Positions 982 to 17,164 of a stretch of 17,285 nt of DNA are shown here, one piece after another; positions within the stretch are counted from its first letter, which is position 1; each line of letters starts with the position of its first letter. The stretch lies in the IMG/VR virus record IMGVR_UViG_2698536369_000020; one strand, 5' to 3'. Under the pieces are notes generated by a model, which was not told where the DNA came from, searched no databases, and saw only the letters and a list, made by a program, of their open reading frames with translations. Position numbers and translations under genes: made by a program. The stretch is from a virus. Its lineage: Duplodnaviria; Heunggongvirae; Uroviricota; Caudoviricetes.

Positions 982-1192
982 GCGTTCATTAATTTGATTT
1001 ATTCGCATCCATCAGCGCTTTTAACTCCTCCGGCGTAAACGGTGGTTTGCGTCGGTACAACATCGCATGGCAATTAGGGCACACAGGCAGCAAAAAAACA
1101 AATGAGATCAAAGTAATATATCTTCACTTGCAGGCTTGAACAGCAGAAAATTTGCGAGCATGATCGCAATTATTTCACTGCCAGGGATATCA

Positions 1193-2065
1193 ATGGCTTC
1201 CAGTAAATCGCTACAGCAGGCAATTGCCAATATAAAAATCTGGCACAAGGGTGAACAGCGCGCGCCGCATAAGCCATTGTTATTGCTATACGTATTAGCG
1301 GGATACCTGCATGGACATCCGCGCCTTTTCGATTATGGCTCGGAAATCTACGAACCTCTGCACAGTTTACTGGAACGTTTTGGGCCACAGCGTTCACAGT
1401 ACCGACCTGATATGCCGTTCTGGCGATTACAAGGCGACGGATTCTGGCAATTACACAATGCCGAGCTTTGCTCAACAGCAGGGAGCAGCCGACAACCGCC
1501 AGTGAAGGAACTGAACGAATACCACGTTGCAGGCGGTTTCGATGAACAGCACTACGCCCTGGTAACCGGCAATAAAAAACTCATCAATACTCTGGCGCAA
1601 CAGATACTCGAAGCGCACTTCACCGAGAGTATTCAGGAAGAAATTGCTGACGAGCTGGGTTTTGATCTCCAGCAAATCCGTAAACAGCGCGACCCGTTAT
1701 TTCGCAAAAATGTATTACGTGCTTATAAATACCAGTGCGCGATATGTGGCTTTAATATGCGCCACGACGACACCACCGTCGCGCTGGAAGCGGCGCATAT
1801 AAAATGGAAACAGCACGGCGGTCCTTGTGAAATTCCTAATGGTCTGGCGCTTTGTGCAATACACCATAAAGCCTTTGATAAAGGATCGATTGGCCTGGAT
1901 GAAAATATGCGGGTACTGGTCTCGGATGCGGTAAACGGCGGAGGGATCGTTGAGAGATTATTCTGGGATTTTGACGGGAAAACTATTGCGTTGCCACAGG
2001 TGCGTAAAAATTACCCTTTTGAGGGGTTTGTGGAGTGGCATCGAAAAGAGGTTTTTAGGGGGTGA
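1193..2065 (+). CDS. HNH-family (HNH_2-like) endonuclease, possibly a modification-dependent restriction enzyme
   Basis: C-terminal motif block CAICGF...AAHIKW...NGLALCAIHHKAFDKG fits the HNH / HNH_2 nuclease signature (Cys pair, catalytic His, N..LC..HH..FD.G). N-terminal ~150 aa is a separate domain (HKPLLLLYVLAGY...). Start chosen at the ATG at 1193, which has an AGGGA Shine-Dalgarno ~6 nt upstream; the ORF track extends to a TTG at 1136. No adjacent methyltransferase. Confidence 0.6.
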   Translation: MASSKSLQQAIANIKIWHKGEQRAPHKPLLLLYVLAGYLHGHPRLFDYGSEIYEPLHSLLERFGPQRSQYRPDMPFWRLQGDGFWQLHNAELCSTAGSSRQPPVKELNEYHVAGGFDEQHYALVTGNKKLINTLAQQILEAHFTESIQEEIADELGFDLQQIRKQRDPLFRKNVLRAYKYQCAICGFNMRHDDTTVALEAAHIKWKQHGGPCEIPNGLALCAIHHKAFDKGSIGLDENMRVLVSDAVNGGGIVERLFWDFDGKTIALPQVRKNYPFEGFVEWHRKEVFRG

Positions 2066-2687: not shown

Positions 2688-3428
2688 CTAATCATTTCCC
2701 TTACGAATATATGGGCCAAAAGCCCAAGAATCATAATAAGGGTGATGGACTAGTTTTTCATTAAATCGAACACTATAAGTTAATTTTTTTATATTTTTAC
2801 GTACAGCATTAATACTGGGCAAAGAGGAAAGATAATCTATAAACTTATCGATAGTGATTTCCCCTTCGCAACACTCAAACCCATCAATGATATTTTTCGC
2901 CATTTTTCCATTTTCATTTTTTTGATATATCACTCCAGGTATTCGTTGAAAAAAACTAGATAATGCATATTTGTCCGCTACATATGTATCATCCACATGA
3001 TATTTCCCACCGAGCATAGTTGTAGTAACAATAAGCTTATACACACCTTTGGGTTGCCATGTTGATGGTAGTTCGAATTCTTTAATGATCACATCAAGAT
3101 GATTAAGATAATGTTCAGAAATTCGATTTATTTGTTGAAAATAAGAACGCATAAATTTATTATTATGATCATGTATTAATGAGCTATCTCCAACGATGTT
3201 ACACACTTGCTGATAGTACTTACCATAATATATTGGTTGACCATTTGATTTTAGTTCTGTAAAAATCAAACAATCATCCAGGAGAATCACGCAATCGCAC
3301 TGATAATTAGCATAAACATCAATTGGAGGAGCTTTAATCCCCGCATCACGAACTTGTTTTATAAATTGTTGCTCATGAAATCGCCCTTTACTTGCTTGAG
3401 AAATTTTTTTGGAACCAAATAATGACAT
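2688..3428 (-). CDS. Hypothetical protein with NERD / PD-(D/E)xK-like nuclease signature, 246 aa (distal gene of two-gene operon)
   Basis: N-terminal region GRFHEQQ...VYANYQCDCVILLDDCLIFTELKSNGQPIYYG fits the NERD-type layout (G..xE, then acidic residue, hydrophobic strand, E-x-K). Its ATG overlaps the stop of the upstream gene (TAATG at 3426-3430), indicating translational coupling. Strongly AT-rich. Confidence 0.55.
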   Translation of the reverse strand: MSLFGSKKISQASKGRFHEQQFIKQVRDAGIKAPPIDVYANYQCDCVILLDDCLIFTELKSNGQPIYYGKYYQQVCNIVGDSSLIHDHNNKFMRSYFQQINRISEHYLNHLDVIIKEFELPSTWQPKGVYKLIVTTTMLGGKYHVDDTYVADKYALSSFFQRIPGVIYQKNENGKMAKNIIDGFECCEGEITIDKFIDYLSSLPSINAVRKNIKKLTYSVRFNEKLVHHPYYDSWAFGPYIRKGND

Positions 3429-4726
3429 TAGACTGAGCTATTTGCTATTAATGCAGGCATTAAGCATAAACCGTCCATACAGGGAATAAATGGGCAATCA
3501 TTAAGATCATGTGATTTTGAATTGAAGGTAAAATAATCTATCAGTTTTTTTGCTGCATCTGCTGCAATCCCCTTACGTTGAAAGAATGATAACCAACTCT
3601 CACGGCTTTTTATGATCAGCCAGCGATCCAACTGTAGGGGTATAGGTTTTGTCGATGAAAATCTTTTGCTCATTTCTTCTTTAGATAACTCGACTAAACA
3701 TTGATAAGCGTGCACCCAATTAAATAATGATATATTCCCATATTCTTCATGAAGGTCATCAGGAGACATATTTTCCAACTCGCTTAGATGAAATGAGCTA
3801 AAAACGCCATCAGAATTTAAGTAAGATGGCATATGATCCTTTACCCAACTATTTAGATGAAAATGTTTGTTACTAAATTCATGAACTTCGCTATATAGAT
3901 GTGACGCTCTCATCATTAGTCTATTTCTTGCAATCTCATAATCTCGGTATAAACAAAAACTATCAACCTCAAGAGAGTAAATGTTATTATCCAATTTTGT
4001 AAATACTGCACTACTTAGTCTGAAAAAGTCTCTTACTCTGCTTAATGAGTCAAAAACATTCCACTCATTAAGGTACCCTCCCATTGAAAGCAAGGTTTGT
4101 TTATTCACACAAGAAGTTAGTTTCAATGGCCCATGAGTCCGTAAATAAGAAAATATTCTTCCGGTGTAATTGGCTACCTCATCAAATGCCCTATCGATAA
4201 CTCGAAAATATTCGATATCAGGTTCAGCATGAATATTAATATTTTCAGAAACGATAAATAATGGAAAAATCCTCTTCATTTTTTTAGGATCATTGACCAC
4301 AACCAAGGATGATAATGATGATAAAAACATCTCACAAAACATGATGAGATTAAGTATTAATGCATGTGATTTTTTTGTGTTTTTACGCCAAATACCAGCA
4401 CATTTTGTAGCCGCAAAAAAAGAATTATTGATATCATGCATAATTTTACATTGACTCTCGAACTCAGAGATTAGTTCAATGTTATCAGGAAATGAGTTTA
4501 CTAGCTCATTAATACATTTTTTGAATGTATTGTTATACTCAACTTCAGTCTGAACTGAAAATCTATTATAATAGATGGAAGATATTCTCAGCACATCCAA
4601 GGCGATATCTATACTAATATCATCTCTTTTTATGTACTCACAAAAAAAAGAACAAAACTGTTTCGGGTCGTTAGCAAGATTACTGATTCTAGTGGTATCA
4701 TAAACTTTTTCCATTTTTCCATACAT
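3428..4726 (-). CDS. Hypothetical protein, 432 aa, no recognisable family (proximal gene of two-gene operon)
   Basis: Long uninterrupted ORF in strongly AT-rich DNA; no Walker A, HNH, PD-(D/E)xK or other motif that I can recognise; one ~23-residue hydrophobic stretch (HALILNLIMFCEMFLSSLSSLVVV). A second in-frame ATG four codons downstream has the AGGA box at a more plausible spacing (~11 nt). Confidence 0.55.
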   Translation of the reverse strand: MYGKMEKVYDTTRISNLANDPKQFCSFFCEYIKRDDISIDIALDVLRISSIYYNRFSVQTEVEYNNTFKKCINELVNSFPDNIELISEFESQCKIMHDINNSFFAATKCAGIWRKNTKKSHALILNLIMFCEMFLSSLSSLVVVNDPKKMKRIFPLFIVSENINIHAEPDIEYFRVIDRAFDEVANYTGRIFSYLRTHGPLKLTSCVNKQTLLSMGGYLNEWNVFDSLSRVRDFFRLSSAVFTKLDNNIYSLEVDSFCLYRDYEIARNRLMMRASHLYSEVHEFSNKHFHLNSWVKDHMPSYLNSDGVFSSFHLSELENMSPDDLHEEYGNISLFNWVHAYQCLVELSKEEMSKRFSSTKPIPLQLDRWLIIKSRESWLSFFQRKGIAADAAKKLIDYFTFNSKSHDLNDCPFIPCMDGLCLMPALIANSSV

Positions 4727-5403: not shown

Positions 5404-5422
5404 TGGTGCGAAGGCCGGACTC
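5404..5422. repeat. attR: 19-bp direct repeat of the leuX 3' end (P4-type att core)
   Basis: TGGTGCGAAGGCCGGACTC at 5404-5422 versus TGGTGCCGAAGGCCGGACTC at 17080-17099 inside the tRNA 3' end (one C missing). The two copies bracket the whole P4-like gene set. Confidence 0.7.
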
Positions 5423-5476
5423 AAATATCAAAATAAGTCAATGATAAAAAACAAATAATAAAAAACAAAAATGAAA

Positions 5477-5497
5477 TATGCCCCCTTTTGTGCCCCC
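5477..5497. repeat. Two TGCCCCC motifs near attR, candidate integrase arm-type binding sites
   Basis: ATATGCCCCC ttttg TGCCCCCA; the same heptamer recurs three times next to attL/int start (16918-16964). Confidence 0.3.
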
Positions 5498-5567
5498 ATT
5501 GTTTTTCTGACCAATCTATTTTCAACCCATCAACAAATCGGAAAGTTAACTAATTTTTAATCAGTGA

Positions 5568-5594
5568 GTTTGGATCCGTAGCTCGGATCCAAAC
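5568..5594. other. Perfect hairpin: 11-bp stem, 5-nt loop
   Basis: GTTTGGATCCG tagct CGGATCCAAAC; located between attR and the crr-like repeats; no adjacent U-run typical of an intrinsic terminator. Confidence 0.4.
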
Positions 5595-5620
5595 CAGTGC
5601 ATCTTTTACCCACATAAAAA

Positions 5621-5915
5621 ATTTTTTTTCGGAAGAACTGTTCACACTGTTCACCCTTTGATTTTCTCCTTTTATTTCAGAGTAATAGATGGTGAATAAT
5701 GGGTGAAGGGTGAACATTCGATTCTTCACCTCCGGCATTCTGCCGATGTGACTTGTGCAGGGGATTAATCCTCCGCACTGAAATCACACAGGGAGAAAAA
5801 AGTTTTTTTTGATTTGATTGTTCACACTGTTCACCTTTCGTTTTTCTCTTTTAATTTCAGTGTGATAACGGGTGAATATACGGTGAAGGGTGAACAGTGG
5901 ATTGTTCACCTGCGG
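5621..5915. repeat. crr-like region: two ~120-bp direct repeats, each carrying TGTTCACC-type iterons
   Basis: Unit 1 ~5621-5745 and unit 2 ~5797-5915 both read A6-T8, TGTTCACACTGTTCACC, ~50 nt, GGTGAAnnnnGGTGAAGGGTGAACA, TTCACC. Lies immediately downstream of the alpha gene. Matches my recollection that P4 crr is two 120-bp direct repeats with type-I iterons bound by alpha protein. Confidence 0.6.
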
Positions 5916-5969
5916 GGAATTCAGGGATAAAAAAAGACCGGCAGATGCCGGTCAGGTGGGTCATGAGGG

Positions 5970-8303
5970 TCAGGTTGTTGCAGGGTCGTCACATTTTGGC
6001 AGCCAGTCGCCGTAGCTTTCCTCTTTCAGCGTCAGGTTGGTCTGTATCCCCTGTTTGGTATGGCGCTTCTCGTAATTCAGTCCGTATTCCTTCAGCATCA
6101 CCGGCAGCCCCAGCCCGAACATTTTCAGACTGAGTACATTCCGGTAGCCGTTTGCCTCCATGTAGGCCAGATAGGCGTGATAGAGGTATTTACGGTAATT
6201 ACGCGGGATGATACTGGCGTTCCCCATATACATGCCGCTGGTCTGCGGCAGGGTTTCCAGATAGCCGATAAAATCAAACGTCGGGTCGGCATCCCGTTTG
6301 ATGTTCAGTGCCTCGTCTGAGTTCTGCTGGGACTGAAGCAGTGACCGGGCGAGCATCGGGTCGCTGAACTTCTGCATCAGGTGACGCACGATGACCGCCA
6401 GCTCGCGGGTGATTTTGTCCTTAAGCTGCGGGTCGCGCTCCTGCGGGGCTATCTGTTCCGGGAAGTGAATAATCACCCGCCGGCGTGACACGCCGCCGCT
6501 GCGGTCGGTGAAGCGCATCGGGTTATTGTTGACGGCCAGAATCACCGCCGGGATATGCGTGGAGTACGCATCCCGGTATTTCGGGTCAACGGACACCGCA
6601 TCGCCGCCGGTGATGGCCTTGAGTCCGGCTCCGTCGCCGCTCCATTTTTCCTGGTCCGGCAGGCGTATCAGTGAGAAGCCAGTTAACGCGGCACGTTCAC
6701 GCGGGGATTCCAGCGTCTCGATGGTGGCCGACGTGGCGTTATCCTCCCCGGCCAGCAGGGTGGCTATTTCGGCCATGATACTTTTGCCGCTGCCGCCGGG
6801 ACCGGTCACCTCCAGAAAGAGCTGCCAGTCGTAGCGGTTTGCCAGCACCATAAACAGTGCGGCCAGAATCACGTCGCGTTTTTCCGCACGACCACCGGCG
6901 GCACGGTCAAGCCAGCGCCAGAACGCGGGAGCGTGGGTTTCCAGCATTTCCCCTTCCACCGGCGGGGTGAAATCCACATCGCACAGGGTGCGCATCCAGT
7001 GTGACGGACTGTGCGGGTGGAACGAGCCGTTCTGCGTGTCGAGCACGCCGTTACGAAAGCCAATCAGGCGGCGGGAGGGGGCTTCCTGCTGCGGAATAAT
7101 CAGCTTCAGGGTGTCCACCACGGAGGCCACCTTCCCGGAGGAGAACGGCGCGCGCAGCCGCTGAAACAGCCCGGCCACATCCCGGGCAAAGTCCTGTGGT
7201 GGCAGCACCTTCCAGACACCATTTTCATAACGGGACAGAAGCTGGCCGTTGGCATCGACCGCGAGCGCCTCGCCGTAATGCTCATAGATACGCATGGCCT
7301 TTTCGCTGGTACTCATGGCGGAAAACTCCGCTTCACTCATGGTGTCGAACGGGCTTTCAGCCGGTGGCCGGATGGCATCGTAAATGGCCTTACGGGTGGC
7401 CTCCCCGCCGTACTGCGTGAAGGCATCATTCCAGTCACCGAAGACCGGTGGCAGGGCAACAACACCTTCACACGCATCTGCGGCTGCGGCGGCTTTTTTC
7501 TGGCCGTCACCGCTGAGGTCACGGTCAGCAGCAAGGACAATCTGACAGGCCGGATGCTTCTGCCGGGCAAGGCTGGCCAGAGAAAGGAGGTTCACGGAAG
7601 AAAGCGCCACCATCACCGTTTCACCGGTCAGGTGATGTACGGTAAGTGCGGTCGCGTATCCCTCCGCTATCCACAGACGTTTTCCGGCCTGATTCTGTCC
7701 TTCAAGGGTGTGACAGGTGCCCCTGACCTGTCCGCCTTTCAGGGTGCGCTTACGGCCGTCAGCACTGATTAACTGAAGGTTAACCAGTTCGCCGCTGTCG
7801 TCATACAGTGGCACCACAAGGTCACCGGCGCGCCAGCTCACGCCACCGGCTCTGTGTGTGCCGGTCAGCATCCGGCATTCCCGGCCGGGAAAGCCCTTGC
7901 GGGTCAGGTAGGCGTTACCGGTTCCGGGACGGGTTTTTGCCATCAGGGTTTGTGCCAGTGCGGCGGCGTTCTTCCGGGCGGCTTCTGTTTCAGCACCGGC
8001 GGCGGCCGTCACTGTCGGGTCAGCCGGGGGCAGGCTGCCGGTCACGGCAGCCACCTTTGCGGCCGCGTCGGACGGAGAGACACCAAACACCTTTTCAACC
8101 AGTTTCAGGCCGTCACCGGCACCACACTGATTGCAGTACCAGGTGCCGCGCCCCTCCCTGTCATCAAAACGGAAGCGGTCACTCCCGCCACAGACCGGAC
8201 AGGGCTGATGACGGTTTTTCAGCACCTGAATCCCCAGCGCCGGGAGAATACGCGGCCAGTGGCCGAGCGCATGGCTGACGGTGGCGGTTACGTTCATTTT
8301 CAT
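5970..8303 (-). CDS. P4 alpha-like primase-helicase, 777 aa
   Basis: N-terminal zinc-binding primase motif CPVCGGSDRFRFDD...GTWYCNQCGAGDG, central TOPRIM-like region, C-terminal Walker A GPGGSGKS; length equals that recalled for P4 alpha. Confidence 0.85.
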   Translation of the reverse strand: MKMNVTATVSHALGHWPRILPALGIQVLKNRHQPCPVCGGSDRFRFDDREGRGTWYCNQCGAGDGLKLVEKVFGVSPSDAAAKVAAVTGSLPPADPTVTAAAGAETEAARKNAAALAQTLMAKTRPGTGNAYLTRKGFPGRECRMLTGTHRAGGVSWRAGDLVVPLYDDSGELVNLQLISADGRKRTLKGGQVRGTCHTLEGQNQAGKRLWIAEGYATALTVHHLTGETVMVALSSVNLLSLASLARQKHPACQIVLAADRDLSGDGQKKAAAAADACEGVVALPPVFGDWNDAFTQYGGEATRKAIYDAIRPPAESPFDTMSEAEFSAMSTSEKAMRIYEHYGEALAVDANGQLLSRYENGVWKVLPPQDFARDVAGLFQRLRAPFSSGKVASVVDTLKLIIPQQEAPSRRLIGFRNGVLDTQNGSFHPHSPSHWMRTLCDVDFTPPVEGEMLETHAPAFWRWLDRAAGGRAEKRDVILAALFMVLANRYDWQLFLEVTGPGGSGKSIMAEIATLLAGEDNATSATIETLESPRERAALTGFSLIRLPDQEKWSGDGAGLKAITGGDAVSVDPKYRDAYSTHIPAVILAVNNNPMRFTDRSGGVSRRRVIIHFPEQIAPQERDPQLKDKITRELAVIVRHLMQKFSDPMLARSLLQSQQNSDEALNIKRDADPTFDFIGYLETLPQTSGMYMGNASIIPRNYRKYLYHAYLAYMEANGYRNVLSLKMFGLGLPVMLKEYGLNYEKRHTKQGIQTNLTLKEESYGDWLPKCDDPATT

Positions 8304-8317
8304 GGTGTTGTTCTCCT

Positions 8318-8638
8318 TCAGTGCAGTACCGGCGCTTTTATGTGACGGGCACAGAGTTCATCCATCACAACCAGCCCGAGAAAGGACAGCGACGGCGCGG
8401 CCTTCAGGGGGCCGGATTCCATTAAATCTTCCAGCAGGGCACAGGCTATCTGACGCCCTTTTTCCTCACCGTGCTGGCGCAGATAAAAGCCCTCCAGCTC
8501 AGCGGCGATGGCCGCCTCCAGTGATTCAAGGGTGAGATGCGGGTAGCGGTGCTGACGTTCGCACACGGTCAGCCAGGCACAGGCGACAGCGCGACGGTAA
8601 AGGGCAGCGCGTAAGACGGGCGGTAAGGGTGTTTTCAT
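8318..8638 (-). CDS. P4 orf106-like small protein, 106 aa
   Basis: ORF directly upstream of alpha in the same operon orientation; size and position match the small ORF between orf151 and alpha in P4-like elements. Function unknown. Confidence 0.45.
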
Positions 8639-8773
8639 TTGTTTTCCTCCCTGTGACAGATGACTGCATTCCGTGCCGGTTGTATTAACTGATAAGGCAT
8701 ATCTGCGTCTCCTGAAGACGTGCGTATCCCTGCGCGAATACGCACATTTAATTTTTCGGGTGTCGTTTTTTAA

Positions 8774-9229
8774 TTACAGATAATTGCGGTAACTGTTATC
8801 CGGGGTGATTTCCGGGTCAGGCTCCGTGCGGGGAATTTCCCGCCATTCCCGCGCCACCGGTGCCGCCCGGCTGGCCGGAACAGTGTCCTGCGGGTAAATA
8901 TCCAGATATTTCTCCCGCCATTTCTGTAATTCCGGGTCTCCGGCCATTTCTTTCAGTACCGCATGCCGGTTTACGGGGCTGCGTTTAAACAGGTCAGGAC
9001 GGTCACAGGTAAATTCCCGCAGAAAACGCCCCAGCGGGATGTCTGTGGTGCGCCCGTCTGCGAGGATACGCACAAGGATACTGAATTTACGGCGGTACGG
9101 GTTCCAGACAATGTCCGGGCAGCGGTACGGCATTTCCCACGGAATACCGTCTTCCAGAATGCCGACCACGGCCACATCGGGAAAACCGGCAGAACGGTAA
9201 ATCTCACCGGGCTGGGGAAAATCAAACAT
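8774..9229 (-). CDS. P4 orf151-like protein, 151 aa
   Basis: Size and position in the leftward operon match P4 orf151; start overlaps the upstream eps-like stop by a few nt. Confidence 0.45.
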   Translation of the reverse strand: MFDFPQPGEIYRSAGFPDVAVVGILEDGIPWEMPYRCPDIVWNPYRRKFSILVRILADGRTTDIPLGRFLREFTCDRPDLFKRSPVNRHAVLKEMAGDPELQKWREKYLDIYPQDTVPASRAAPVAREWREIPRTEPDPEITPDNSYRNYL

Positions 9230-9509
9230 GCGTCTTGTCTCCCCGGTCTTTCTGCTGGGCGAGAAAATCGCGGCACAGGCCTTTGGCTTTCAGCTCATTC
9301 AGCACAAAATCAATATCTTCATTCAGGTAGCTGAAAATATGCGGAATGTAGAGCTGATGCAGGCCGGAGAGTTCACGGTGAATCAAATCACCCCCAACAA
9401 ACTGGGATACGGCGCTGGCGCGGTTGAGCTTATGGTAAGCCTCAATGCTGAGGTGTTCACGGGCGTCATGACGCGCTGAGACGGTCTGAGGGGCTTTTTT
9501 ATTACGCAC
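9222..9509 (-). CDS. eps-like small protein (~95 aa from a GTG start)
   Basis: GTG at 9509-9507 preceded by GGAGG at ~6 nt; begins [20 protein letters not shown]...; the GTG overlaps the stop of the upstream kil-like ORF. The ORF track's 177-aa version runs through the upstream gene and has no ribosome-binding site. Confidence 0.4.
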
Positions 9510-9699
9510 GGGACACCTCCACCACCGGCAGACGGGCAGCAAGGGAGAGCACATAGTCACGGACAAGGGAACGGCGGGCGCTGCGTTCATCACCGGCGAC
9601 GGTGCGAAGCATGCAGATACGGGGATGACGGTCTGCGCGACGGACAGCCGCAAACACAAAGACAAATTCAGGGTGTGAGGGGGTAAGGGTTGTAGCCAT
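9502..9699 (-). CDS. kil-like small protein, 65 aa (first gene after the immunity region)
   Basis: ATG at 9699-9697 with AAGGAGG ~8 nt upstream; [16 protein letters not shown]...; position right after the CI/seq elements matches P4 kil. Assignment is by synteny only. Confidence 0.4.
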
Positions 9700-9710
9700 G
9701 ATGGCAGCCT

Positions 9711-9752
9711 CCTTGAAGTAACAGTTACAGCTACCACTGGAGTTCCTACGCT
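9711..9752 (-). promoter_or_regulatory. seqC-like target element of the P4-type RNA immunity system
   Basis: CCTTGAAGTAAC ... GTTCCTACGC; same two boxes recur at 9933-9958; the candidate CI region between them contains the complementary GTAGGAA; this copy abuts the kil ribosome-binding site. Confidence 0.4.
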
Positions 9753-9754
9753 CA

Positions 9755-9845
9755 TGGGTGGTAGCCCGGACGGGGGTAGGAATACCGGCCTTCAAGGAAA
9801 CCGGCCAGCCCGAAGGCTGCCCCGCCCGGACCACCATTATCTGAC
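9755..9845 (-). ncRNA. CI-RNA-like structured immunity RNA (boundaries approximate)
   Basis: GC-rich segment with terminal complementarity (GGTGGTAGCCCGG ... CCGGACCACC) and an internal GGTAGGAATACC box complementary to the flanking seq elements; lies between the two seq copies, as P4 cI lies between seqA and seqC. Confidence 0.35.
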
Positions 9846-9932
9846 AGAGGCTACGGTTTAAAAACCACAGCCAGAAAAACAGGTGTGCCGAAGCAACGAC
9901 GTAAAAAAAGACGCATGGCGCGTCATATGTCG

Positions 9933-9958
9933 CCTTGAAGTAACTCGGGTTCCTACGC
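9933..9958 (-). promoter_or_regulatory. seqA-like target element (upstream copy)
   Basis: CCTTGAAGTAAC tcgg GTTCCTACGC, direct repeat of the element at 9711-9752. Confidence 0.4.
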
Positions 9959-10052
9959 CCGGCTGCCGATTTTGCGGCAGCGGAAAAACTATATCCGCAA
10001 ATGCCGGAAAAAGGCAAGCCAGAAAAAGGGAGTTTTTGCAGAACAGGCATCA

Positions 10053-10319
10053 TCATGCGTCGTACCCCCGTTTGCGTCCGGCAATGCGTCCGGCCATCCA
10101 TGCGGTGACTTCAGAGTGCAGCCAGGCCACATTTTTACCGCCAAGACTCACCTGCGGCGGAAATTCCCCCTTACGGATGAGTTCATAGATGGTCGAGCGT
10201 GACAGGCCGCACAGGTGCATCACTTCCGGCAGACGTAAAAAACGCTCCTGCGTGATGTCCGGCAGCGGCATCAGTGGCGTAACAGGGGCGGGAGACGGGG
10301 AAGAAAAAACAGCTTGCAT
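10053..10319 (-). CDS. Vis / AlpA-family phage regulatory DNA-binding protein, 88 aa
   Basis: HTH region [51 protein letters not shown] is characteristic of AlpA/Vis; 88 aa, transcribed divergently from sid, as P4 vis (orf88) is. Confidence 0.7.
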
Positions 10320-10596
10320 CGGGCTACCTCGTTAATGTCCATACAGCACCGGATAAGTCCGTCCGGCTTCGGGTAGCGCTTTATTTTGTGAATATTTTCA
10401 GCAGACGCAACAGGGGGAATTTGTTCCGGCAACCTTACAATGGCTGTGTGTTTTTTATCCATCTGGACTGGAAGGGTCTCAAAGGGTTCTGAAGGAACTG
10501 TAATTTTTTATAGTGAAATGCAAATTGTTTTTCCTTATTTATTTCAGTGAATTAATAAAAATAAACAGTAATAAACAGCATAAAAAGCCCATCAAC

Positions 10597-10704
10597 GGGT
10601 GAACAGTGGTGAACAGACGGTGAACAGTCATTACTGCGATTGTTCACCCTTTAACTTACTGTATTACTTATCTTTTTTCTTATGGTGAACAGAGGTGAAC
10701 AGTA
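10597..10704. repeat. ori-like cluster of six TGTTCACC-type iterons
   Basis: GGTGAACAG t GGTGAACAG ac GGTGAACAG (three direct copies at ~11-bp spacing), one inverted copy (TGTTCACCC at ~10641), then GGTGAACAG a GGTGAACAG; between vis and sid. Confidence 0.6.
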
Positions 10705-10870
10705 AAATATAAAAAAACAAACAGTAAGCCGGTTTTTCCTGCGACCTTTTCCTGGCTTGCCGGTCTGAGGATGAGTCTCCTGTGTCAGGGCTGGCACATC
10801 TGCAATGCGTCGTGTTGTTGTCCGGTGTACGTCACAATTTTCTCAACCTGAAGTGACGAGGAGCCGGAAA

Positions 10871-11605
10871 ATGTCTGACAACACCATCCCTGAATATCTG
10901 CAACCCGCGCTGGCACAACTGGAAAAGGCCAGAGCCGCCCATCTTGAGAACGCCCGCCTGATGGATGAGACCGTCACGGCCATTGAACGGGCAGAGCAGG
11001 AAAAAAATGCGCTGACGCAGGCCGACGGAAACGATGCTGACGACTGGCGCACGGCCTTTCGTGCAGCCGGTGGTGTCCTGAGCGACGAGCTGAAACAGCG
11101 CCACATTGAGCGCGTGGCACGCCGGGAGCTGGTACAGGAATATGACAATCTGGCCGTGGTGCTGAATTTTGAACGCGAACGCCTGAAAGGGGCGTGTGAC
11201 AGCACGGCCACCGCCTACCGGAAGGCACATCATCACCTTCTGAGTCTGTATGCAGAGCATGAGCTGGAACACGCCCTGAATGAAACGTGTGAGGCGCTTG
11301 TCCGGGCAATGCATCTGAGCATTCTGGTACAGGAAAATCCGCTCGCCAACACCACCGGGCATCAGGGCTACGTCGCACCCGATAAAGCTGTCATGCAGCA
11401 GGTGAAATCATCGCTGGAACAGAAAATAAAACAGATGCAAATCAGCCTCACCGGCGAGCCGGTTCTCCGGCTGACCGGACTGTCAGCGGCAACACTCCCG
11501 CACATGGATTATGAGGTGGCAGGCACACCGGCACAGCGCAAGGTGTGGCAGGACAAAATAGACCAGCAGGGAGCAGTGCTTAAGGCCAGAGGACTGCTGT
11601 CATGA
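10871..11605 (+). CDS. sid: Sid-like external capsid-size scaffold protein, 244 aa
   Basis: ATG at 10871 preceded by GAGGAG; 244 aa from this start equals the recalled length of P4 Sid; first gene of a sid-delta-psu-sized triplet; coiled-coil-like composition. The ORF track's 266-aa version starts 22 codons upstream without a ribosome-binding site. Confidence 0.6.
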   Translation: MSDNTIPEYLQPALAQLEKARAAHLENARLMDETVTAIERAEQEKNALTQADGNDADDWRTAFRAAGGVLSDELKQRHIERVARRELVQEYDNLAVVLNFERERLKGACDSTATAYRKAHHHLLSLYAEHELEHALNETCEALVRAMHLSILVQENPLANTTGHQGYVAPDKAVMQQVKSSLEQKIKQMQISLTGEPVLRLTGLSAATLPHMDYEVAGTPAQRKVWQDKIDQQGAVLKARGLLS

Positions 11606-12102
11606 TTTACTGCCCGTCGTGTGGACATGTTGCTCACACCCGTCGCGCACATTTCATGGACGATGGCACCAAGATAATGATTGCACAGTGCCGGAATATT
11701 TATTGCTCTGCGACATTTGAAGCGAGTGAAAGCTTTTTCTCTGACTGTAAAGATTCAGGAATGGAATACATTTCAGGCAAACAGAGATACCGCGATTCAC
11801 TGACTTCTGCCTCCGGCAGTATGAAACGCCCGAAAAGAATGCTTGTTACCGGATATTGTTGTCGGAGATGTAAAGGCCTTGCACTGTCAAGAACATCGCG
11901 GCGTCTGTCTCAGGAAGTCACCGAGCGTTTTTATGTGTGCACGGATCCGGGCTGTGGTCTGGTGTTTAAAACGCTTCAGACCATCAACCGCTTCATTGTC
12001 CGCCCGGTCACGCCGGACGAACTGGCAGAAAGCCTGCATGAAAAACAGGAACTGCCGCCAGTACGGTTAAAAACACAATCATATTCGCTGCGTCTGGAAT
12101 GA
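11602..12102 (+). CDS. Delta-like late transcription activator (tandem Ogr-type zinc fingers), 166 aa
   Basis: N-terminal half CPSCGHVAHTRR...CRNIYCSATFEASES mirrors the P2 Ogr zinc-finger signature (CP.C.H.AH.R...C.N..CSATF) and a second, degenerate copy follows (C..C...RTSR...C....C..VF); start overlaps the sid stop (ATGA). Confidence 0.75.
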   Translation: MIYCPSCGHVAHTRRAHFMDDGTKIMIAQCRNIYCSATFEASESFFSDCKDSGMEYISGKQRYRDSLTSASGSMKRPKRMLVTGYCCRRCKGLALSRTSRRLSQEVTERFYVCTDPGCGLVFKTLQTINRFIVRPVTPDELAESLHEKQELPPVRLKTQSYSLRLE

Positions 12103-12175
12103 GGGCTGCCGGTTAACCCCGGCCGTCGCCGCACACCGTATTTTTATTCTTCAGCATGATGAGAAAGAGATAACG

Positions 12176-12748
12176 ATGGAAAGCACAGCCTTACAGCAGG
12201 CCTTTGACACCTGTCAGAATAACAAAGCAGCATGGCTGCAACGCAAAAATGAGCTGGCTGCGGCCGAACAGGAATATCTGCGGCTTCTGTCCGGGGAAGG
12301 CAGAAACGTCAGTCGCCTGGACGAATTACGCAATATTATCGAAGTCAGAAAATGGCAGGTGAATCAGGCCGCCGGTCGTTATATTCGTTCGCATGAAGCC
12401 GTTCAGCACATCAGCATCCGCGACCGGCTGAATGATTTTATGCAGCAGCACGGCACAGCACTGGCGGCGGCACTGGCACCGGAGCTGATGGGATACAGTG
12501 AGCTGACGGCCATTGCCCGAAACTGTGCCATACAGCGTGCCACAGATGCCCTGCGTGAAGCCCTTCTGTCCTGGCTTGCGAAGGGGGAAAAAATTAATTA
12601 TTCCGCACAGGATAGCGACATTTTAACGACCATCGGATTCAGGCCTGACGCGGCTTCGGTGGATGACAGCCGTGAAAAATTCACCCCTGCGCAGAACATG
12701 ATTTTTTCGCGTAAAAGTGCGCAACTGGCATCACATCAGTCTGTGTAA
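12176..12748 (+). CDS. psu: Psu-like polarity-suppression / capsid-decoration protein, 190 aa
   Basis: 190-aa ORF immediately after delta, followed by a terminator and cos site; size and position match P4 Psu. Confidence 0.6.
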   Translation: MESTALQQAFDTCQNNKAAWLQRKNELAAAEQEYLRLLSGEGRNVSRLDELRNIIEVRKWQVNQAAGRYIRSHEAVQHISIRDRLNDFMQQHGTALAAALAPELMGYSELTAIARNCAIQRATDALREALLSWLAKGEKINYSAQDSDILTTIGFRPDAASVDDSREKFTPAQNMIFSRKSAQLASHQSV

Positions 12749-12784
12749 AACTCCCCGAAAATCCGTCCGATTTTACTGAAAAAA

Positions 12785-12822
12785 GCCATGCATCGATAAG
12801 GTGCATGGCTTTGCATGCGTTT
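12785..12822 (+). terminator. Putative intrinsic terminator of the sid-delta-psu operon
   Basis: Hairpin GCCATGCA tcgataagg TGCATGGC followed by TTTGCATGCGTTTT, ~37 nt after the psu stop. Confidence 0.4.
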
Positions 12823-12912
12823 TCCTGCCTCATTTTCTGCAGACCGCGCCATTCCCGGCGCGGCCTGAGCGTGTCAGTGCAACTGCATTAAAACCGCCCT
12901 GCAAAGCGGGCG

Positions 12913-12931
12913 GGCGAGGCGGGGAAAGCAC
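12913..12931. other. cos site (P2/P4-type 19-nt cohesive end sequence)
   Basis: GGCGAGGCGGGGAAAGCAC matches the cohesive-end sequence I recall for P2/P4; located between psu and the hotspot, as in P4. Confidence 0.55.
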
Positions 12932-13010
12932 TGCGCGCCAGTATCTATTAATTTACATTCATAGAATCCTTGCAAAGCAGATTCTGCTAAGATCCCTGAA
13001 ACTTGAGTTG

Positions 13011-13028
13011 AGGATTAGTGTTAATCCT
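13011..13028. promoter_or_regulatory. Palindrome upstream of the methyltransferase gene, candidate operator
   Basis: AGGATTA gtgt TAATCCT (7-bp arms), ~35 bp upstream of the methyltransferase start; a weaker GCAGA t TCTGC palindrome lies at 12977-12987. Confidence 0.3.
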
Positions 13029-13064
13029 TTACAATATCCTAGTATTTGGCTGCTAAGTATGTAG

Positions 13065-14318
13065 GTGATTATTTTGTCTAGTAAAAAGTTTATTTCGCTA
13101 TTTAGTGGCGCAATGGGGTTAGACTTAGGTCTCGAAGAGGCTGGCTTTGAGCTCGTAGCTTGCGTTGAACAAGATAAGGCAGCTCTAAAAACAATTAAAA
13201 CTAATAAGCCAAATCTTGCTGTATTCGAAGGTAGTATTGTTGACTGCACTGGCTCTGAATTATTAGCACTAGCCGGAGTGAATGATAAAGAAGAAATAGA
13301 TTTAGTTGCTGGCGGTCCACCGTGCCAAGCATTTAGTGTTTTTGGAAATAGGTTAGGGCTAGAAGATGCCAGAGGGCAGCTTATTTTCGAATATGTTCGA
13401 ATGATTAAAGAATTAAACCCAAAAGTTTTCGTAATGGAAAACGTACGCGGTTTATTATCAATGTCTATAGTTCCAGCTTCTAAAAAGAAGGAGCTATCAG
13501 GCACAATCGCAGCATCTGCTTTCGAAAAAGGCTCTCTAATAAAAAGGGTAGCTAACGAATTCAATAAACTAGGTTATCATGTGGATTGCTTTGTAGTTAA
13601 TGCTGCCAACTATGGAGCCCCACAAATTAGGGAGCGTGTTATTTTAATTGGTAATCGCTTCGGAATGATAGCCAATTTCGCCTCCCCTTTATTCAGCAAT
13701 AGAGTAGAAGATAATCTTCCGCCATTCAAAACGCTGGGGGATGTAATTGGCCCAGAGAGCGGTTTTGTTGATAAATATCCAGAAGTCATGAATTTTTCGC
13801 CAAGAAAACTGAAATATCTTTCAATGGTTCCACCTGGCGGAAACTGGAGAAGCATGCCAGAAGAAATGCAAAAAGAATCTATGGGAAAAAGCTGGTATCT
13901 TAAAGGAGGAAGAAGTGCTTACTGGAGGAAACTATCTTTCCAGTTTCCTTCACCCACAGTAGTAACAATGCCAAATCATGCGGGAACAAGTATGTGCCAC
14001 CCAACTGAACTTAGAGCTATTTCTGTTGGTGAAGCTGCCGCGATACAAGAGTTTCCTGATTACTGGAAATTTGAAGGTACAACTACAGAAAAATTCAGAC
14101 AGATAGGTAACGCAGTTCCTGTCCGGTTAGGTAAAGTTGCAGGGGAAGCTGCTATGGAACTTCTTCATCGTATACAAGAAAATAAGGTTGCTGATTTAGT
14201 AACTCCAGATTATATAGAAACCCATATTAGACCGCATATTAGAACCAGATCTTTCTTTAAAAATGGTCAAGCATATAGTGGAGATGTTTCTTACTACGAC
14301 CTTGAAGAAGAAGTTTAG
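13065..14318 (+). CDS. DNA (cytosine-5)-methyltransferase, type II modification enzyme
   Basis: Canonical C5-MTase motifs in order: motif I LFSGAMGLDLG, motif IV GGPPCQAFS, motif VI ENVRGL, motif X QIGNAVPV, with a variable target-recognition region between. Low-GC. Exact start (GTG 13065 or a nearby codon) is uncertain. Confidence 0.85.
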   Translation: MIILSSKKFISLFSGAMGLDLGLEEAGFELVACVEQDKAALKTIKTNKPNLAVFEGSIVDCTGSELLALAGVNDKEEIDLVAGGPPCQAFSVFGNRLGLEDARGQLIFEYVRMIKELNPKVFVMENVRGLLSMSIVPASKKKELSGTIAASAFEKGSLIKRVANEFNKLGYHVDCFVVNAANYGAPQIRERVILIGNRFGMIANFASPLFSNRVEDNLPPFKTLGDVIGPESGFVDKYPEVMNFSPRKLKYLSMVPPGGNWRSMPEEMQKESMGKSWYLKGGRSAYWRKLSFQFPSPTVVTMPNHAGTSMCHPTELRAISVGEAAAIQEFPDYWKFEGTTTEKFRQIGNAVPVRLGKVAGEAAMELLHRIQENKVADLVTPDYIETHIRPHIRTRSFFKNGQAYSGDVSYYDLEEEV

Positions 14319-14328
14319 AATTAGTCAT

Positions 14329-14357
14329 AAAAAAAACTGGCCCTTAGGCCAGTTTTT
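14329..14357. terminator. Bidirectional intrinsic terminator between the convergent methyltransferase and endonuclease genes
   Basis: AAAAAAACTGGCC ctta GGCCAGTTTTTT: GC stem flanked by an A-run on one side and a T-run on the other, so it can terminate both converging transcripts. Confidence 0.6.
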
Positions 14358-15175
14358 TATTCATTAATCATTTCAAGTAATTTGTGCCATTGAGCTGTGC
14401 CATCAGCATTTAGAACTTGCTCATTGTACTTCTTTGCAACATGTTCTTTGAATTTTTCAATAAGATCTTTATTTTTTTCTTTTATATCTGCTTCTTTTAC
14501 AGCACGTTCTATACCTTCAAGTACCCAATGCTGGGTTTCAGCCTCACCATTGTTAAGCCATGACCAAAATTCTTTACCAGCATATACATGCACTTTGTCA
14601 CGAATATCAATCACATTGTGGTTTGCACCAGTATTGATACCTCGTAAGATTCTATACTTATCAGTTAATCCATGGCTATTTCCATAAAAAACCCCAACCA
14701 CTATATTGTCAGCCACTCCAGGATAATTATTTATGATTTCGTGAAATGCTTTATTTAGTTGGACAGCCATCGTCAATTGAATAGTCCATTTCCCTGCCTT
14801 AAGAGATAAAAGCTCAATTCTACCATCATCCCTTTGTATTACATGATCTATTTCATCAAAGCAAGGGTGTATAAAAGGCTCGTTGGCAGCTCTATAACTT
14901 TTATCTAATTTATATGCACCAAACACTCTAGGAAGTATTTTTTCATCAATCAATTTTCCAAAGCCAGTATCATGCCCAGTCATTAAATGCTTAGCAATTA
15001 TTGCTTCAACTAGTTCATCAAAATCATTAAGGGAATGATAATCAAAAATAAAAGGGGTCATAAACGGATTTATGGACATTGTTTCTGACATTAACTTTGT
15101 TAGTTTACTTTGTCTCTCCAAAATCCACCACGCAGCACACTCCTGCACTTTAAGTATAACTTCTTGCTTATTCAT
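14357..15175 (-). CDS. Putative type II restriction endonuclease, 272 aa
   Basis: Assigned by context: convergent with a C5-MTase, and its start overlaps the stop of an upstream controller-protein gene (classic C-R-M layout). I do not recognise the family from sequence alone. Confidence 0.6.
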   Translation of the reverse strand: MNKQEVILKVQECAAWWILERQSKLTKLMSETMSINPFMTPFIFDYHSLNDFDELVEAIIAKHLMTGHDTGFGKLIDEKILPRVFGAYKLDKSYRAANEPFIHPCFDEIDHVIQRDDGRIELLSLKAGKWTIQLTMAVQLNKAFHEIINNYPGVADNIVVGVFYGNSHGLTDKYRILRGINTGANHNVIDIRDKVHVYAGKEFWSWLNNGEAETQHWVLEGIERAVKEADIKEKNKDLIEKFKEHVAKKYNEQVLNADGTAQWHKLLEMINE

Positions 15176-15473
15176 GACTTATAAATCCATCTGATAAATT
15201 TTTTAATAAAATTAACCGCTGTTTTTTGTCTAGTTTATTAATCAACAAAATAATTTCTGCCAAGTCATCTTCGGGTGTGTAAAAATATGAGACAGGGACA
15301 TTTAATAAATCAGCGATTTTTTTAGTAAGTGAAAAATCGGGCATATGTTTACCTTTCTCATATTGATTCATGCGAGCACTGGCAGAGCATTCATCAATGC
15401 CAACAAGTATTCCCAACTGTTCTTGAGTTAACCCAGCATTCAATCGGGCTTTTTTTAACCTAATTGGAAGCAT
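15168..15473 (-). CDS. Controller (C) protein, XRE-family helix-turn-helix regulator, ~101 aa
   Basis: HTH motif LTQEQLGILVGIDECSASARMNQYEKGKHMPDFSLTKKIADLLNVPVSYFY; start placed at the internal ATG (15473-15471), which has an AGAGGA Shine-Dalgarno ~8 nt upstream; the ORF track's upstream start at 15551 would put the operator palindrome inside the coding region. Confidence 0.65.
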   Translation of the reverse strand: MLPIRLKKARLNAGLTQEQLGILVGIDECSASARMNQYEKGKHMPDFSLTKKIADLLNVPVSYFYTPEDDLAEIILLINKLDKKQRLILLKNLSDGFISHE

Positions 15474-15522
15474 CGAAAATCCTCTTTTTGGAGGTAGGTT
15501 TGCACTTTTTACACTCGAAATT

Positions 15523-15539
15523 ACTAAGGAATACTTAGT
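15523..15539. promoter_or_regulatory. Candidate C-box operator palindrome
   Basis: ACTAAG gaata CTTAGT, ~50 bp upstream of the preferred C-protein start. Confidence 0.35.
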
Positions 15540-15640
15540 TTTTAAAAGCAATGGAATAATTGCCTAAGAAGTTGTTAAGTGAAGGTTAAAAAGACACAAG
15601 CATTGCTGTTGATGAAGGCTAGTTCAAACTAAGCGGAGAC

Positions 15641-16927
15641 TTAATCAAGGCTATTTTTATTAAGTTTATTTGCAAATTCAAAAGCAGAGATATGCTTCTC
15701 TCTGTTGGAATAAAGATAATCTGCCCACCATTGGACCATTAGTCTGCGCTCATCTAAATGCTCAGACGTATGAATATACGCAGCTCGCACATTATTACGT
15801 TCCGAATGGCTCAATTGGCGTTCAATAGCATCATCACTCCATAATCCTGACTCTCCTAACGCACCACGTGCCATTGTCCTAAAACCATGTCCGCAAACTT
15901 CTGTTTTCGTATCATAGCCCATCGCACGCAATGCATTATTAACAGTGTTCTCACTCATAACCTTAGTTGCGTCATGATCCCCAGGGAAAAGCAGCGTCTT
16001 ATCACCACTAATCTGCTTTAACTGCTCCAACAACCCTATCGCTTGCCTACTAAGTGGAACGAGATGCTCTTCCTTCATCTTCATTCCTCTATATGAGTAA
16101 CGTACGCCTTTAATTTCCTCGCGTTTTGCAGGTATACGCCATAGAGATTTATCGAAGTCGAATTCATCCCAGCGAGCGAAACGTAGCTCACTGGAACGAA
16201 CAAATGTTAATAAAGAAAGTTCAACCGCAATTTTCGTCATCATACGACCACGATATGCAGCAAGACGTGCTAAGAACTCAGGAAAACGATGTGATGGTAG
16301 AGCTGGATAGTGCCGCGTTTTAGCTGTCGATAACGCACCAGCCATATCACTTGCAGGATTTGAATCTATATAATCGTTCTGTACGGCATAGCGCATAATA
16401 GCAGTAACACGTTGCTGAAGACGCTGCGCCACATCATGCTTACCACTGGCATCAACTTTTTTTATCGGTGCTAAAAGATGGCTAGTTTTAAGCTGTCGGA
16501 TATCAGACAAGCCAATATAAGGAAAGATATACAGCTCTAGATAGCGAAGAACACGCGCCCGATGATCCTCACTCCAACGTTTGTTGCTGGCGTGCCATTC
16601 ACGAGCAATAGTTTCAAAATTATAAGCACCAGCATTCTCTGCTTGAGCCTCTTTCTGTACTGCTTTTGGATCTATACCTTGCGCCAGCAACTTTTTCGCT
16701 TCATCCCTCCTCTTTCTAGCTTCAGCAAGCGTCACGGTCGGCCAAACACCAAAAGCGAGGCGATCCTCTTTTTTGTCAGAGGGGCGTCGGTATTTCATGC
16801 GCCAGTATTTAGACCCCTTGGCCGAAACCTCGAGATACAAACCGCCGCCATCGGCCATTTTGTAGCTTTTGTCTTTTGGCTTTGCTGTCTCGACTTGTCT
16901 AGCATTGAGCTTCATTTGGGGGCACAT
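15641..16927 (-). CDS. int: P4-type tyrosine integrase (site-specific recombinase)
   Basis: N-terminal KLNARQVETAKPKDKSYKMADGGGLYLEV, typical of P4-family integrases; C-terminal catalytic region with H..R (CGHGFRTMARGAL) and ...RAAYIHTSEH; lies next to the tRNA att site. Start ambiguous (ATG 16927 or ATG 16915, neither with a strong Shine-Dalgarno). Confidence 0.85.
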   Translation of the reverse strand: MCPQMKLNARQVETAKPKDKSYKMADGGGLYLEVSAKGSKYWRMKYRRPSDKKEDRLAFGVWPTVTLAEARKRRDEAKKLLAQGIDPKAVQKEAQAENAGAYNFETIAREWHASNKRWSEDHRARVLRYLELYIFPYIGLSDIRQLKTSHLLAPIKKVDASGKHDVAQRLQQRVTAIMRYAVQNDYIDSNPASDMAGALSTAKTRHYPALPSHRFPEFLARLAAYRGRMMTKIAVELSLLTFVRSSELRFARWDEFDFDKSLWRIPAKREEIKGVRYSYRGMKMKEEHLVPLSRQAIGLLEQLKQISGDKTLLFPGDHDATKVMSENTVNNALRAMGYDTKTEVCGHGFRTMARGALGESGLWSDDAIERQLSHSERNNVRAAYIHTSEHLDERRLMVQWWADYLYSNREKHISAFEFANKLNKNSLD

Positions 16928-16964
16928 TTCTAATCGAAGTTAAGATGCCCCCAATTATGCCCCC
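16918..16964. repeat. Three TGCCCCC heptamers (one inverted, two direct) between int start and attL, candidate Int arm-type sites
   Basis: GGGGGCA (16918-16924), ATGCCCCC (16945-16952), ATGCCCCC (16957-16964); same motif as near attR. Confidence 0.3.
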
Positions 16965-17079
16965 AATGACATCCGGATTTCAACGGACAACCTCGGACGA
17001 TCCAGGATCGTAGAAATCGCTGAAAGTATTGATTTTTAATGGATAATCGGACTTACTCGGATGGACTTGGAAGTAATAA

Positions 17080-17099
17080 TGGTGCCGAAGGCCGGACTC
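17080..17099. repeat. attL core within the 3' end of leuX
   Basis: TGGTGCCGAAGGCCGGACTC, directly repeated (19/20) at 5404-5422. Confidence 0.7.
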
Positions 17100-17164
17100 G
17101 AACCGGCACGTATTTCTACGGTTGATTTTGAATCAACTGCGTCTACCGATTTCGCCACTTCGGC
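17080..17164 (-). tRNA. leuX: tRNA-Leu (anticodon CAA)
   Basis: Reverse complement reads GCCGAAGTGGCGAAATCGGTAGACGCAGTTGATTCAAAATCAACCGTAGAAATACGTGCCGGTTCGAGTCCGGCCTTCGGCACCA: 85 nt, CAA anticodon in the loop TTCAAAA, long variable arm, CCA end encoded. Confidence 0.9.

Follow-up and report, generated by a model that had tools for sequence, protein, structure and literature searches.

The 17,285-nucleotide stretch of DNA filed in IMG/VR as virus record IMGVR_UViG_2698536369_000020 (hereinafter, the window, always at its full length) raises the question of what has been inserted next to leuX, the tRNA-Leu(CAA) gene close to its right end, and whether the inserted element is complete. The window is Escherichia coli DNA, with nanS on the left and leuX on the right; directly past leuX, related genomes have ahr. 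The comparisons described here indicate with high confidence that positions 5404-17099 are a phage satellite of the P4 family that retains the seven core components of this group and that its own tyrosine integrase inserted at the 3' end of leuX. The insertion comprises 11,676 bp, and both of its ends are fixed by an empty-site genome: in E. coli O145 RM11626-C1, the left flank of the window is joined directly to an intact leuX and therefore the interval is a discrete insertion with exactly these ends. Gene content, intactness, cis-acting sites and the exact boundaries of the insertion can all be read directly from the DNA.

Core components and cis-acting sites

P4-like satellites are defined by seven core components, and the elements that hold all seven are classified as 'Type A' (Moura de Sousa and Rocha 2021, PMC8628076). 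In the window, all seven (int, psu, delta, sid, alpA/vis, epsilon and alpha) are present, intact and co-localised in the P4 order within a unit of ~11 kb (11,676 bp), the arrangement by which membership in this group is recognised. With every annotated protein of the P4 reference genome (NC_001609/X51522) used as a tblastn query, all P4 proteins from int to psu yield full-length, unbroken matches, with 91-100% identity, and neither int nor alpha contains a frameshift. The Pfam assignments are concordant for Int, alpha, Vis, Delta, Psu, epsilon and an Ash/Icd-like open reading frame (ORF) that spans the immunity region. The ORF list, Pfam, tblastn and a PADLOC search together account for all long ORFs of the interval, and no conjugation or virion genes were detected among them. 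The features of the element are listed in the table, together with the evidence for each.

Features of the satellite and its integration site (window positions; aa, amino acids; nt, nucleotides)
Feature	Position	Strand	Evidence
leuX, tRNA-Leu(CAA), integration target	17080-17164	-	ARAGORN and Rfam; sole tRNA called
Int-distal att core, 19 nt (TGGTGC-GAAGGCCGGACTC), one C short of the tRNA 3' end	5404-5422		repeat search, empty-site alignment
Int-proximal att core, 20 nt (TGGTGCCGAAGGCCGGACTC), 3' end of leuX	17080-17099		identical to the annotated P4 attP core
P4-type tyrosine integrase (Int), 428 aa	15641-16927	-	90.9% identical to P4 Int over 429 aligned positions; Arm-DNA-bind_3, Phage_int_M, Phage_integrase
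alpha primase-helicase, 777 aa	5970-8303	-	98.7% identical to P4; Zn-ribbon, Toprim, D5_N, Pox_D5
orf106 (cnr; DUF5375)	8318-8638	-	100% identical to P4
orf151	8774-9229	-	98.7% identical to P4
epsilon (helper derepression protein), 95 aa	9222-9509	-	97.9% identical to P4; PF25738, E = 8e-51
Ash/Icd-like ORF (P4 kil/eta region), 199 aa, spans the immunity region	9502-10101	-	PF10554
vis (AlpA-type excisionase/regulator), 88 aa	10053-10319	-	98.9% identical to P4; PF05930
sid (capsid size determination), 244 aa	10871-11605	+	98.4% identical to P4, 244/244 aa aligned
delta (Ogr/Delta zinc-finger late activator), 166 aa	11602-12102	+	97.6% identical to P4; Ogr_Delta domain
psu (polarity suppression/capsid decoration), 190 aa	12176-12748	+	98.9% identical to P4; PF07455, E = 1e-88
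C5-cytosine DNA methyltransferase (M)	13065-14318	+	PF00145, E = 7e-65; PADLOC MTase_II, E = 4e-105
R.EcoO109I endonuclease (R), 272 aa	14357-15175	-	272/272 aa identical to PDB 1WTD/1WTE
Controller (C) protein, 101 aa from the ATG at 15473	15168-15473	-	PADLOC Control_protein, E = 3e-69
Palindrome CTAAG-N5-CTTAG upstream of the C gene, candidate C-box	15524-15538		single copy in the window vs 0.01 expected
cos region common to P2-like phages (73 bp)	12866-12938	+	megablast vs phage records
crr (cis replication region), two 120-bp direct repeats (5616-5735, 5796-5915)	5616-5915	+	P4 match, repeat search
ori type-1 iterons, six TGTTCACC octamers	10598-10701		octamer count
Two Int arm-type repeats (GGGGGCA), P' arm	5476-5499	-	23/24 bases as in P4 4151-4174
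Three Int arm-type repeats, P arm	16916-16966		identical to P4
TGT-N12-ACA dyad where P4 has its PLL activator site	10422-10439		P4 comparison
Psid region with two TGT-N12-ACA dyads	10781-10836	+	identical to P4
CI immunity RNA (Rfam C4 family), loop boxes CCTTGAAG and TTCCTAC	9754-9841	-	Rfam, 86 bits
seqC-type CI target, boxes CTTCAAGG and GTAGGAA	9711-9749	-	P4 alignment
PLE leader with seqA-type target	9904-9994	-	Rfam isrK and c4-a1b1 matches

Among the phage records searched with megablast, P4 is the only long match of the interval, with 75% of the length covered at 95% identity. The blastn alignment with P4 consists of three blocks, of which the first (window 5404-9838, P4 4078-8504; 97.2% nucleotide identity) and the second (window 9897-12912, P4 8608-11624; 96.8%) together amount to 7.4 kb, and the third, which corresponds to int, is less conserved (window 15716-17103, P4 2715-4101; 83.3%), with the 3' end of int unrelated to that of P4. 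Thus, the element shares with P4 the integration site and the gene order int...psu-delta-sid, vis, epsilon, orf151, orf106/cnr, alpha. In contrast, gop, beta and cII have no match in the window in either tblastn or blastn searches, with P4 positions 1-2714 unmatched, and the slot that these genes occupy in P4 holds a different gene cassette, EcoO109I, discussed below. A minor distinction from P4 is a 9-nt insertion at the stop codon of alpha (5964-5972; TCATGAGGGTCAGG here, TCAGG in P4), such that the final residue of the protein differs although the length of 777 amino acids is preserved.

The cis-acting sites that P4 uses are conserved to a comparable extent, with cos, crr, the ori iterons and the late-promoter dyads all as in P4. 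The 19-nt cohesive end GGCGAGGCGGGGAAAGCAC (12913-12931) matches the opening 19 nt of the P4 record exactly, and the similarity to P4 ends ~10 bases to the right of it. The five TGTTCACC octamers of crr (5648-5910) and the six of ori account for most of the 12 copies of this octamer in the window, where 0.5 are expected. Five of the six Int arm repeats annotated in P4 are kept, the exception being located within the int coding region. In P4, ori also includes three 10-bp 'type 2' repeats (CACTTAAAG-like); in the window element these have diverged although their surroundings are nearly identical, and positions 10460-10500 contain a different triplet of ~10-bp repeats, GACTGGAAGG, GTCTCAAAGG and GTTCTGAAGG.

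The original prediction, made from the letters of the window and a list of ORFs, fares well against these comparisons, including the blastn search against P4 that it had proposed as a check. It described a complete, P4-sized satellite prophage at leuX, which agrees with the P4 alignment, the seven intact core components and the empty-site boundaries; att direct repeats ~11.7 kb apart, with the integrase beside the tRNA gene, which are located where it had placed them; products of 777, 88, 244, 166 and 190 amino acids for alpha, vis, sid, delta and psu, respectively, which match in length and are 97.6-98.9% identical to the P4 proteins; and two iteron clusters, a CI-type immunity region and a retained cos, all of which were recovered (five and six octamers, an Rfam C4 RNA and the P4-identical cohesive end). 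The near gene-for-gene synteny with P4 that it claimed holds from int to psu but fails for the replaced gop/beta/cII segment, and the cargo whose presence it noticed but left unnamed is the EcoO109I restriction-modification system.

Provided that this inventory functions as it does in P4, from which the following steps are taken by analogy, the prophage would be kept silent by the CI RNA, whose pairing with the seqA and seqC targets of the PLE leader would terminate transcription prematurely. In the presence of a P2-type helper, the late promoters PLL and Psid would be activated, Vis and Int would excise the element, and alpha would replicate it from ori and crr. Epsilon would then derepress the helper, with Delta switching on the helper late genes, Sid imposing small capsids and Psu decorating them, and the helper terminase would cut at cos and package the 11.7-kb genome.

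Immunity region and EcoO109I cargo

The immunity region of the element differs from that of P4. In P4, the CI RNA pairs with seqA and seqC, which leads to premature transcription termination (PMC4825925). The loop boxes of the P4 CI RNA are CCTGTGAA and TTCTCAC, and the boxes of its seqA and seqC targets are TTCACAGG and GTGAGAA; those of the window element differ at both the loop and the targets, with CTTCAAGG and GTAGGAA as the boxes of seqA as well as of seqC. The complementarity of CI to its own seqA and seqC is perfect over 8-9 nt, compared with 4-5 nt of cross-complementarity between the window element and P4, and in the segment between seqA and CI, 104 nt of P4 are swapped for an unrelated 58 nt. 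Because the CI loop and both targets have changed in a matched way, the window element is predicted to be heteroimmune, rather than homoimmune, to P4.

The cargo (12932-15640) fills the slot between psu/cos and int and stands out by composition, with 36.9% GC over 2.7 kb, compared with 54.8% in the P4-homologous part. By its sequence matches, it is the EcoO109I type II restriction-modification system, comprising the endonuclease R, an m5C methylase and a C protein with a candidate C-box. The M and R genes are convergent and adjacent, and the 3' end of the C gene overlaps the start of R by 8 nt. The palindrome upstream of the C gene is what we take to be the published C.EcoO109I site. This cassette should shield the lysogen from incoming DNA that lacks the modification and probably contributes to the stability of the element as well.

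Among the 5,426 complete E. coli genomes, 69 have the same cassette, and many of those 69 are O157:H7. Three aligned copies differ from that in the window by the length of one A-run and by at most two substitutions, the only indel in the 2.7 kb being A8 at position 14329, within the 38-bp spacer between M and R, as opposed to A7 in all three. RefSeq lists R as a 244-amino-acid protein in the 69 same-cassette genomes; a frameshift of R in these relatives was considered as an explanation and rejected, given that the coding sequence is identical. The EcoO109I recognition site, RGGNCCY, is missing from the whole 17.3-kb window, where ~11.5 sites are expected. Avoidance driven by the cargo was likewise rejected because the scarcity is general: P4 also has none, against ~11 expected, and 40 enterobacterial loci have 0-6 sites each.

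The presence of EcoO109I on a P4-like satellite at leuX is already in the literature, and the element is an ordinary member of a very common family. Kita et al. are said, in later accounts, to have reported in 1999 that EcoO109I resides on a P4-like prophage at leuX in E. coli H709c. The psu-int slot next to cos is a defence hotspot of P4-like satellites, with EcoO109I named among its occupants, and phiR73 carries a retron in the psu/cos-int slot of a P4-like backbone (Rousset 2021). The window element is a clean, apparently complete case of this cos-adjacent hotspot carrying a restriction-modification system and involves no new biology; its value for annotation is that the low-GC 2.7-kb cassette can be recognised as cargo as opposed to backbone.

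One-base difference between the att cores

The two att cores lie 11,676 bp apart, and no matches to the 20-mer core were found in shuffled windows. The int-distal core consists of 19 nt, in contrast to the full 20-bp attP core of laboratory P4. The original prediction took this one-base indel as a sign of recent insertion. The difference is real but is not private to the window element, and the reading of it as a mark of recency is not borne out: because the 19-nt core is found in 34 of the 35 related junctions, across 17 distinct left 12-mers (and as many distinct right ones), it is uninformative on the age of the insertion. As far as these alignments go, the difference is neither a dating signal nor a decay signal, and it neither supports nor excludes inducibility.

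The junctions with the short core include four further E. coli loci, which have left flanks of two kinds, and 29 of the 30 IMG/VR contigs that match the junction pattern (the remaining contig has the full 20 nt); in each of the five cases where one contig contains both ends, a short distal core is paired with a perfect tRNA core. The 19-nt core accompanies P4-like elements of several lineages, with alpha proteins 59-85% identical to that of the window. Independent repeats of an identical one-base mutation at many junctions are implausible. The difference is, possibly, family-wide among P4-family prophages at leuX and is the only point here that might be new.

The explanation that we favour, albeit tentatively and with rather low confidence, is that the 19-nt attP is borne by the element and strand exchange occurs within the six bases that end the tRNA gene (TGGTGC, + strand), to the left of the missing base, in which case the rest of the core would be an Int-binding site and would not serve to restore the tRNA. 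Alternatively, the short core could be host-derived, and then excision would leave a broken leuX, a lock that would favour retention of the element. A scan for the short core joined to a tRNA body returned five loci, in Salmonella arizonae, Pantoea eucrina, Enterobacter chuandaensis, Pseudenterobacter timonensis and Citrobacter sp. Four of these are displaced tRNA-Leu fragments of 30-66 nt, with three beside other integrases that are 48-59% identical to the window Int; the Pantoea copy is nearly full length, and ARAGORN still calls a tRNA there. A free attP (P arm - core - P' arm) was not found in IMG/VR, metagenome contigs or plasmids, and nine short contigs that encode an identical integrase are all in the prophage form. 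The only free form on record is laboratory P4, with its 20-nt core.

Relatives and rival readings

Of the 5,426 complete E. coli genomes, 2,993 give some P4-like match and 68 contain 80% or more of the element, the best match having 98.6% identity over 99% of the length. The closest relatives show how the parts of the element combine. The O157:H7 strain FRIK944 (NZ_CP016625) and strain JNE23-001 (NZ_AP045064) have the same cassette in the same cos-int position, the same int and the same 19-nt distal core, but their left neighbour is a truncated second integrase as opposed to the native flank in the window, and in JNE23-001 the immunity region is of another type. E. coli DE17 has the backbone, variable slot, immunity type and left flank of the window element but carries TIR-domain cargo, and its integrase is frameshifted, unlike the intact integrase of the window. 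Over the region compared (window 9480-10110), DE17 thus combines the immunity type of the window with different cargo, whereas JNE23-001 combines the same EcoO109I cassette with a third CI/seqA/seqC type. Immunity type and cargo do not move as a unit and, therefore, these modules are shuffled by recombination among satellites.

Several observations weigh against the reading of positions 5404-17099 as a helper-dependent P4-family satellite with EcoO109I cargo. No helper prophage lies within the window, the int-distal core falls one base short of the tRNA core, and the methylase is matched at the family level (PF00145, MTase_II). Excision, replication and packaging are inferred solely from the intactness of the genes and sites. 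Furthermore, some related copies are clearly degraded, DE17 by the frameshift in int and ESDR8 by an IS21 insertion in epsilon, which is uninterrupted in the window copy, so that long-term residence and decay do occur in this lineage. Part of this evidence fits a different reading, which we consider unlikely, namely, that the element is a domesticated, immobile remnant that looks complete but in which excision is blocked by the short core or by a hidden regulatory change, and which is kept as a chromosomal restriction-modification or defence locus. Apart from the one-base offset of the int-distal core and the decay in DE17 and ESDR8, this reading is consistent with the near-identical elements at the same site in ~68 complete genomes, a pattern compatible with vertical inheritance, and with the failure to find a free attP in the viral, metagenome and plasmid collections or in the nine short contigs with the same integrase. 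However, all genes and cis-acting sites checked are intact, the shuffling of cargo and immunity modules among relatives indicates ongoing exchange, and a mobility-blocking lesion is hard to reconcile with a 19-nt core that is found beside 17 left flanks in elements with alpha only 59-85% identical.

Two other readings place the element nearer to, or farther from, P4 than the P4-family satellite proposed here. An identification with the laboratory phage P4, lysogenised at its usual site, would agree with the shared attachment site and gene order and with the 95-97% nucleotide identity over 75% of the length, but is refuted by the EcoO109I cassette that stands in place of P4 1-2714 (gop, beta and cII). 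The DNA of int is only 83% identical, the type-2 ori repeats differ, and so do the CI loop and both of its targets, which would put the element outside the P4 immunity group. At the other extreme, leuX is a common site of genomic islands, and in related genomes islands with integrases 48-59% identical to that of the window are located there, so that a generic tRNA-associated island with some P4-derived genes, independent of any helper, might be envisaged. Such an island would hardly be expected to hold seven satellite core genes together with cos, ori and crr in the P4 order within 11.7 kb, with all long ORFs accounted for and no conjugation or virion genes among them, and we regard this possibility as very improbable. 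Transfer of the EcoO109I system among E. coli strains by any P2-type helper is, in principle, possible.

The flank to the left of the satellite includes two further features. Window positions 2688-4726 (- strand) contain two abutting ORFs of 432 and 246 amino acids, with 33% GC, which together represent a frameshifted copy of a 678-amino-acid hypothetical protein that is intact in DE17 and RM11626-C1 and has no Pfam or PADLOC match. This gene lies outside the satellite because it adjoins leuX even in the empty-site genome. Between nanS and this low-GC gene, at 1136-2065 (+ strand), there is an HNH-type nuclease, the RefSeq relatives of which are annotated as phosphorothioated-DNA-binding restriction endonucleases; it is flanked by pseudogene fragments in related genomes, and the region looks like a small defence islet separate from the satellite.

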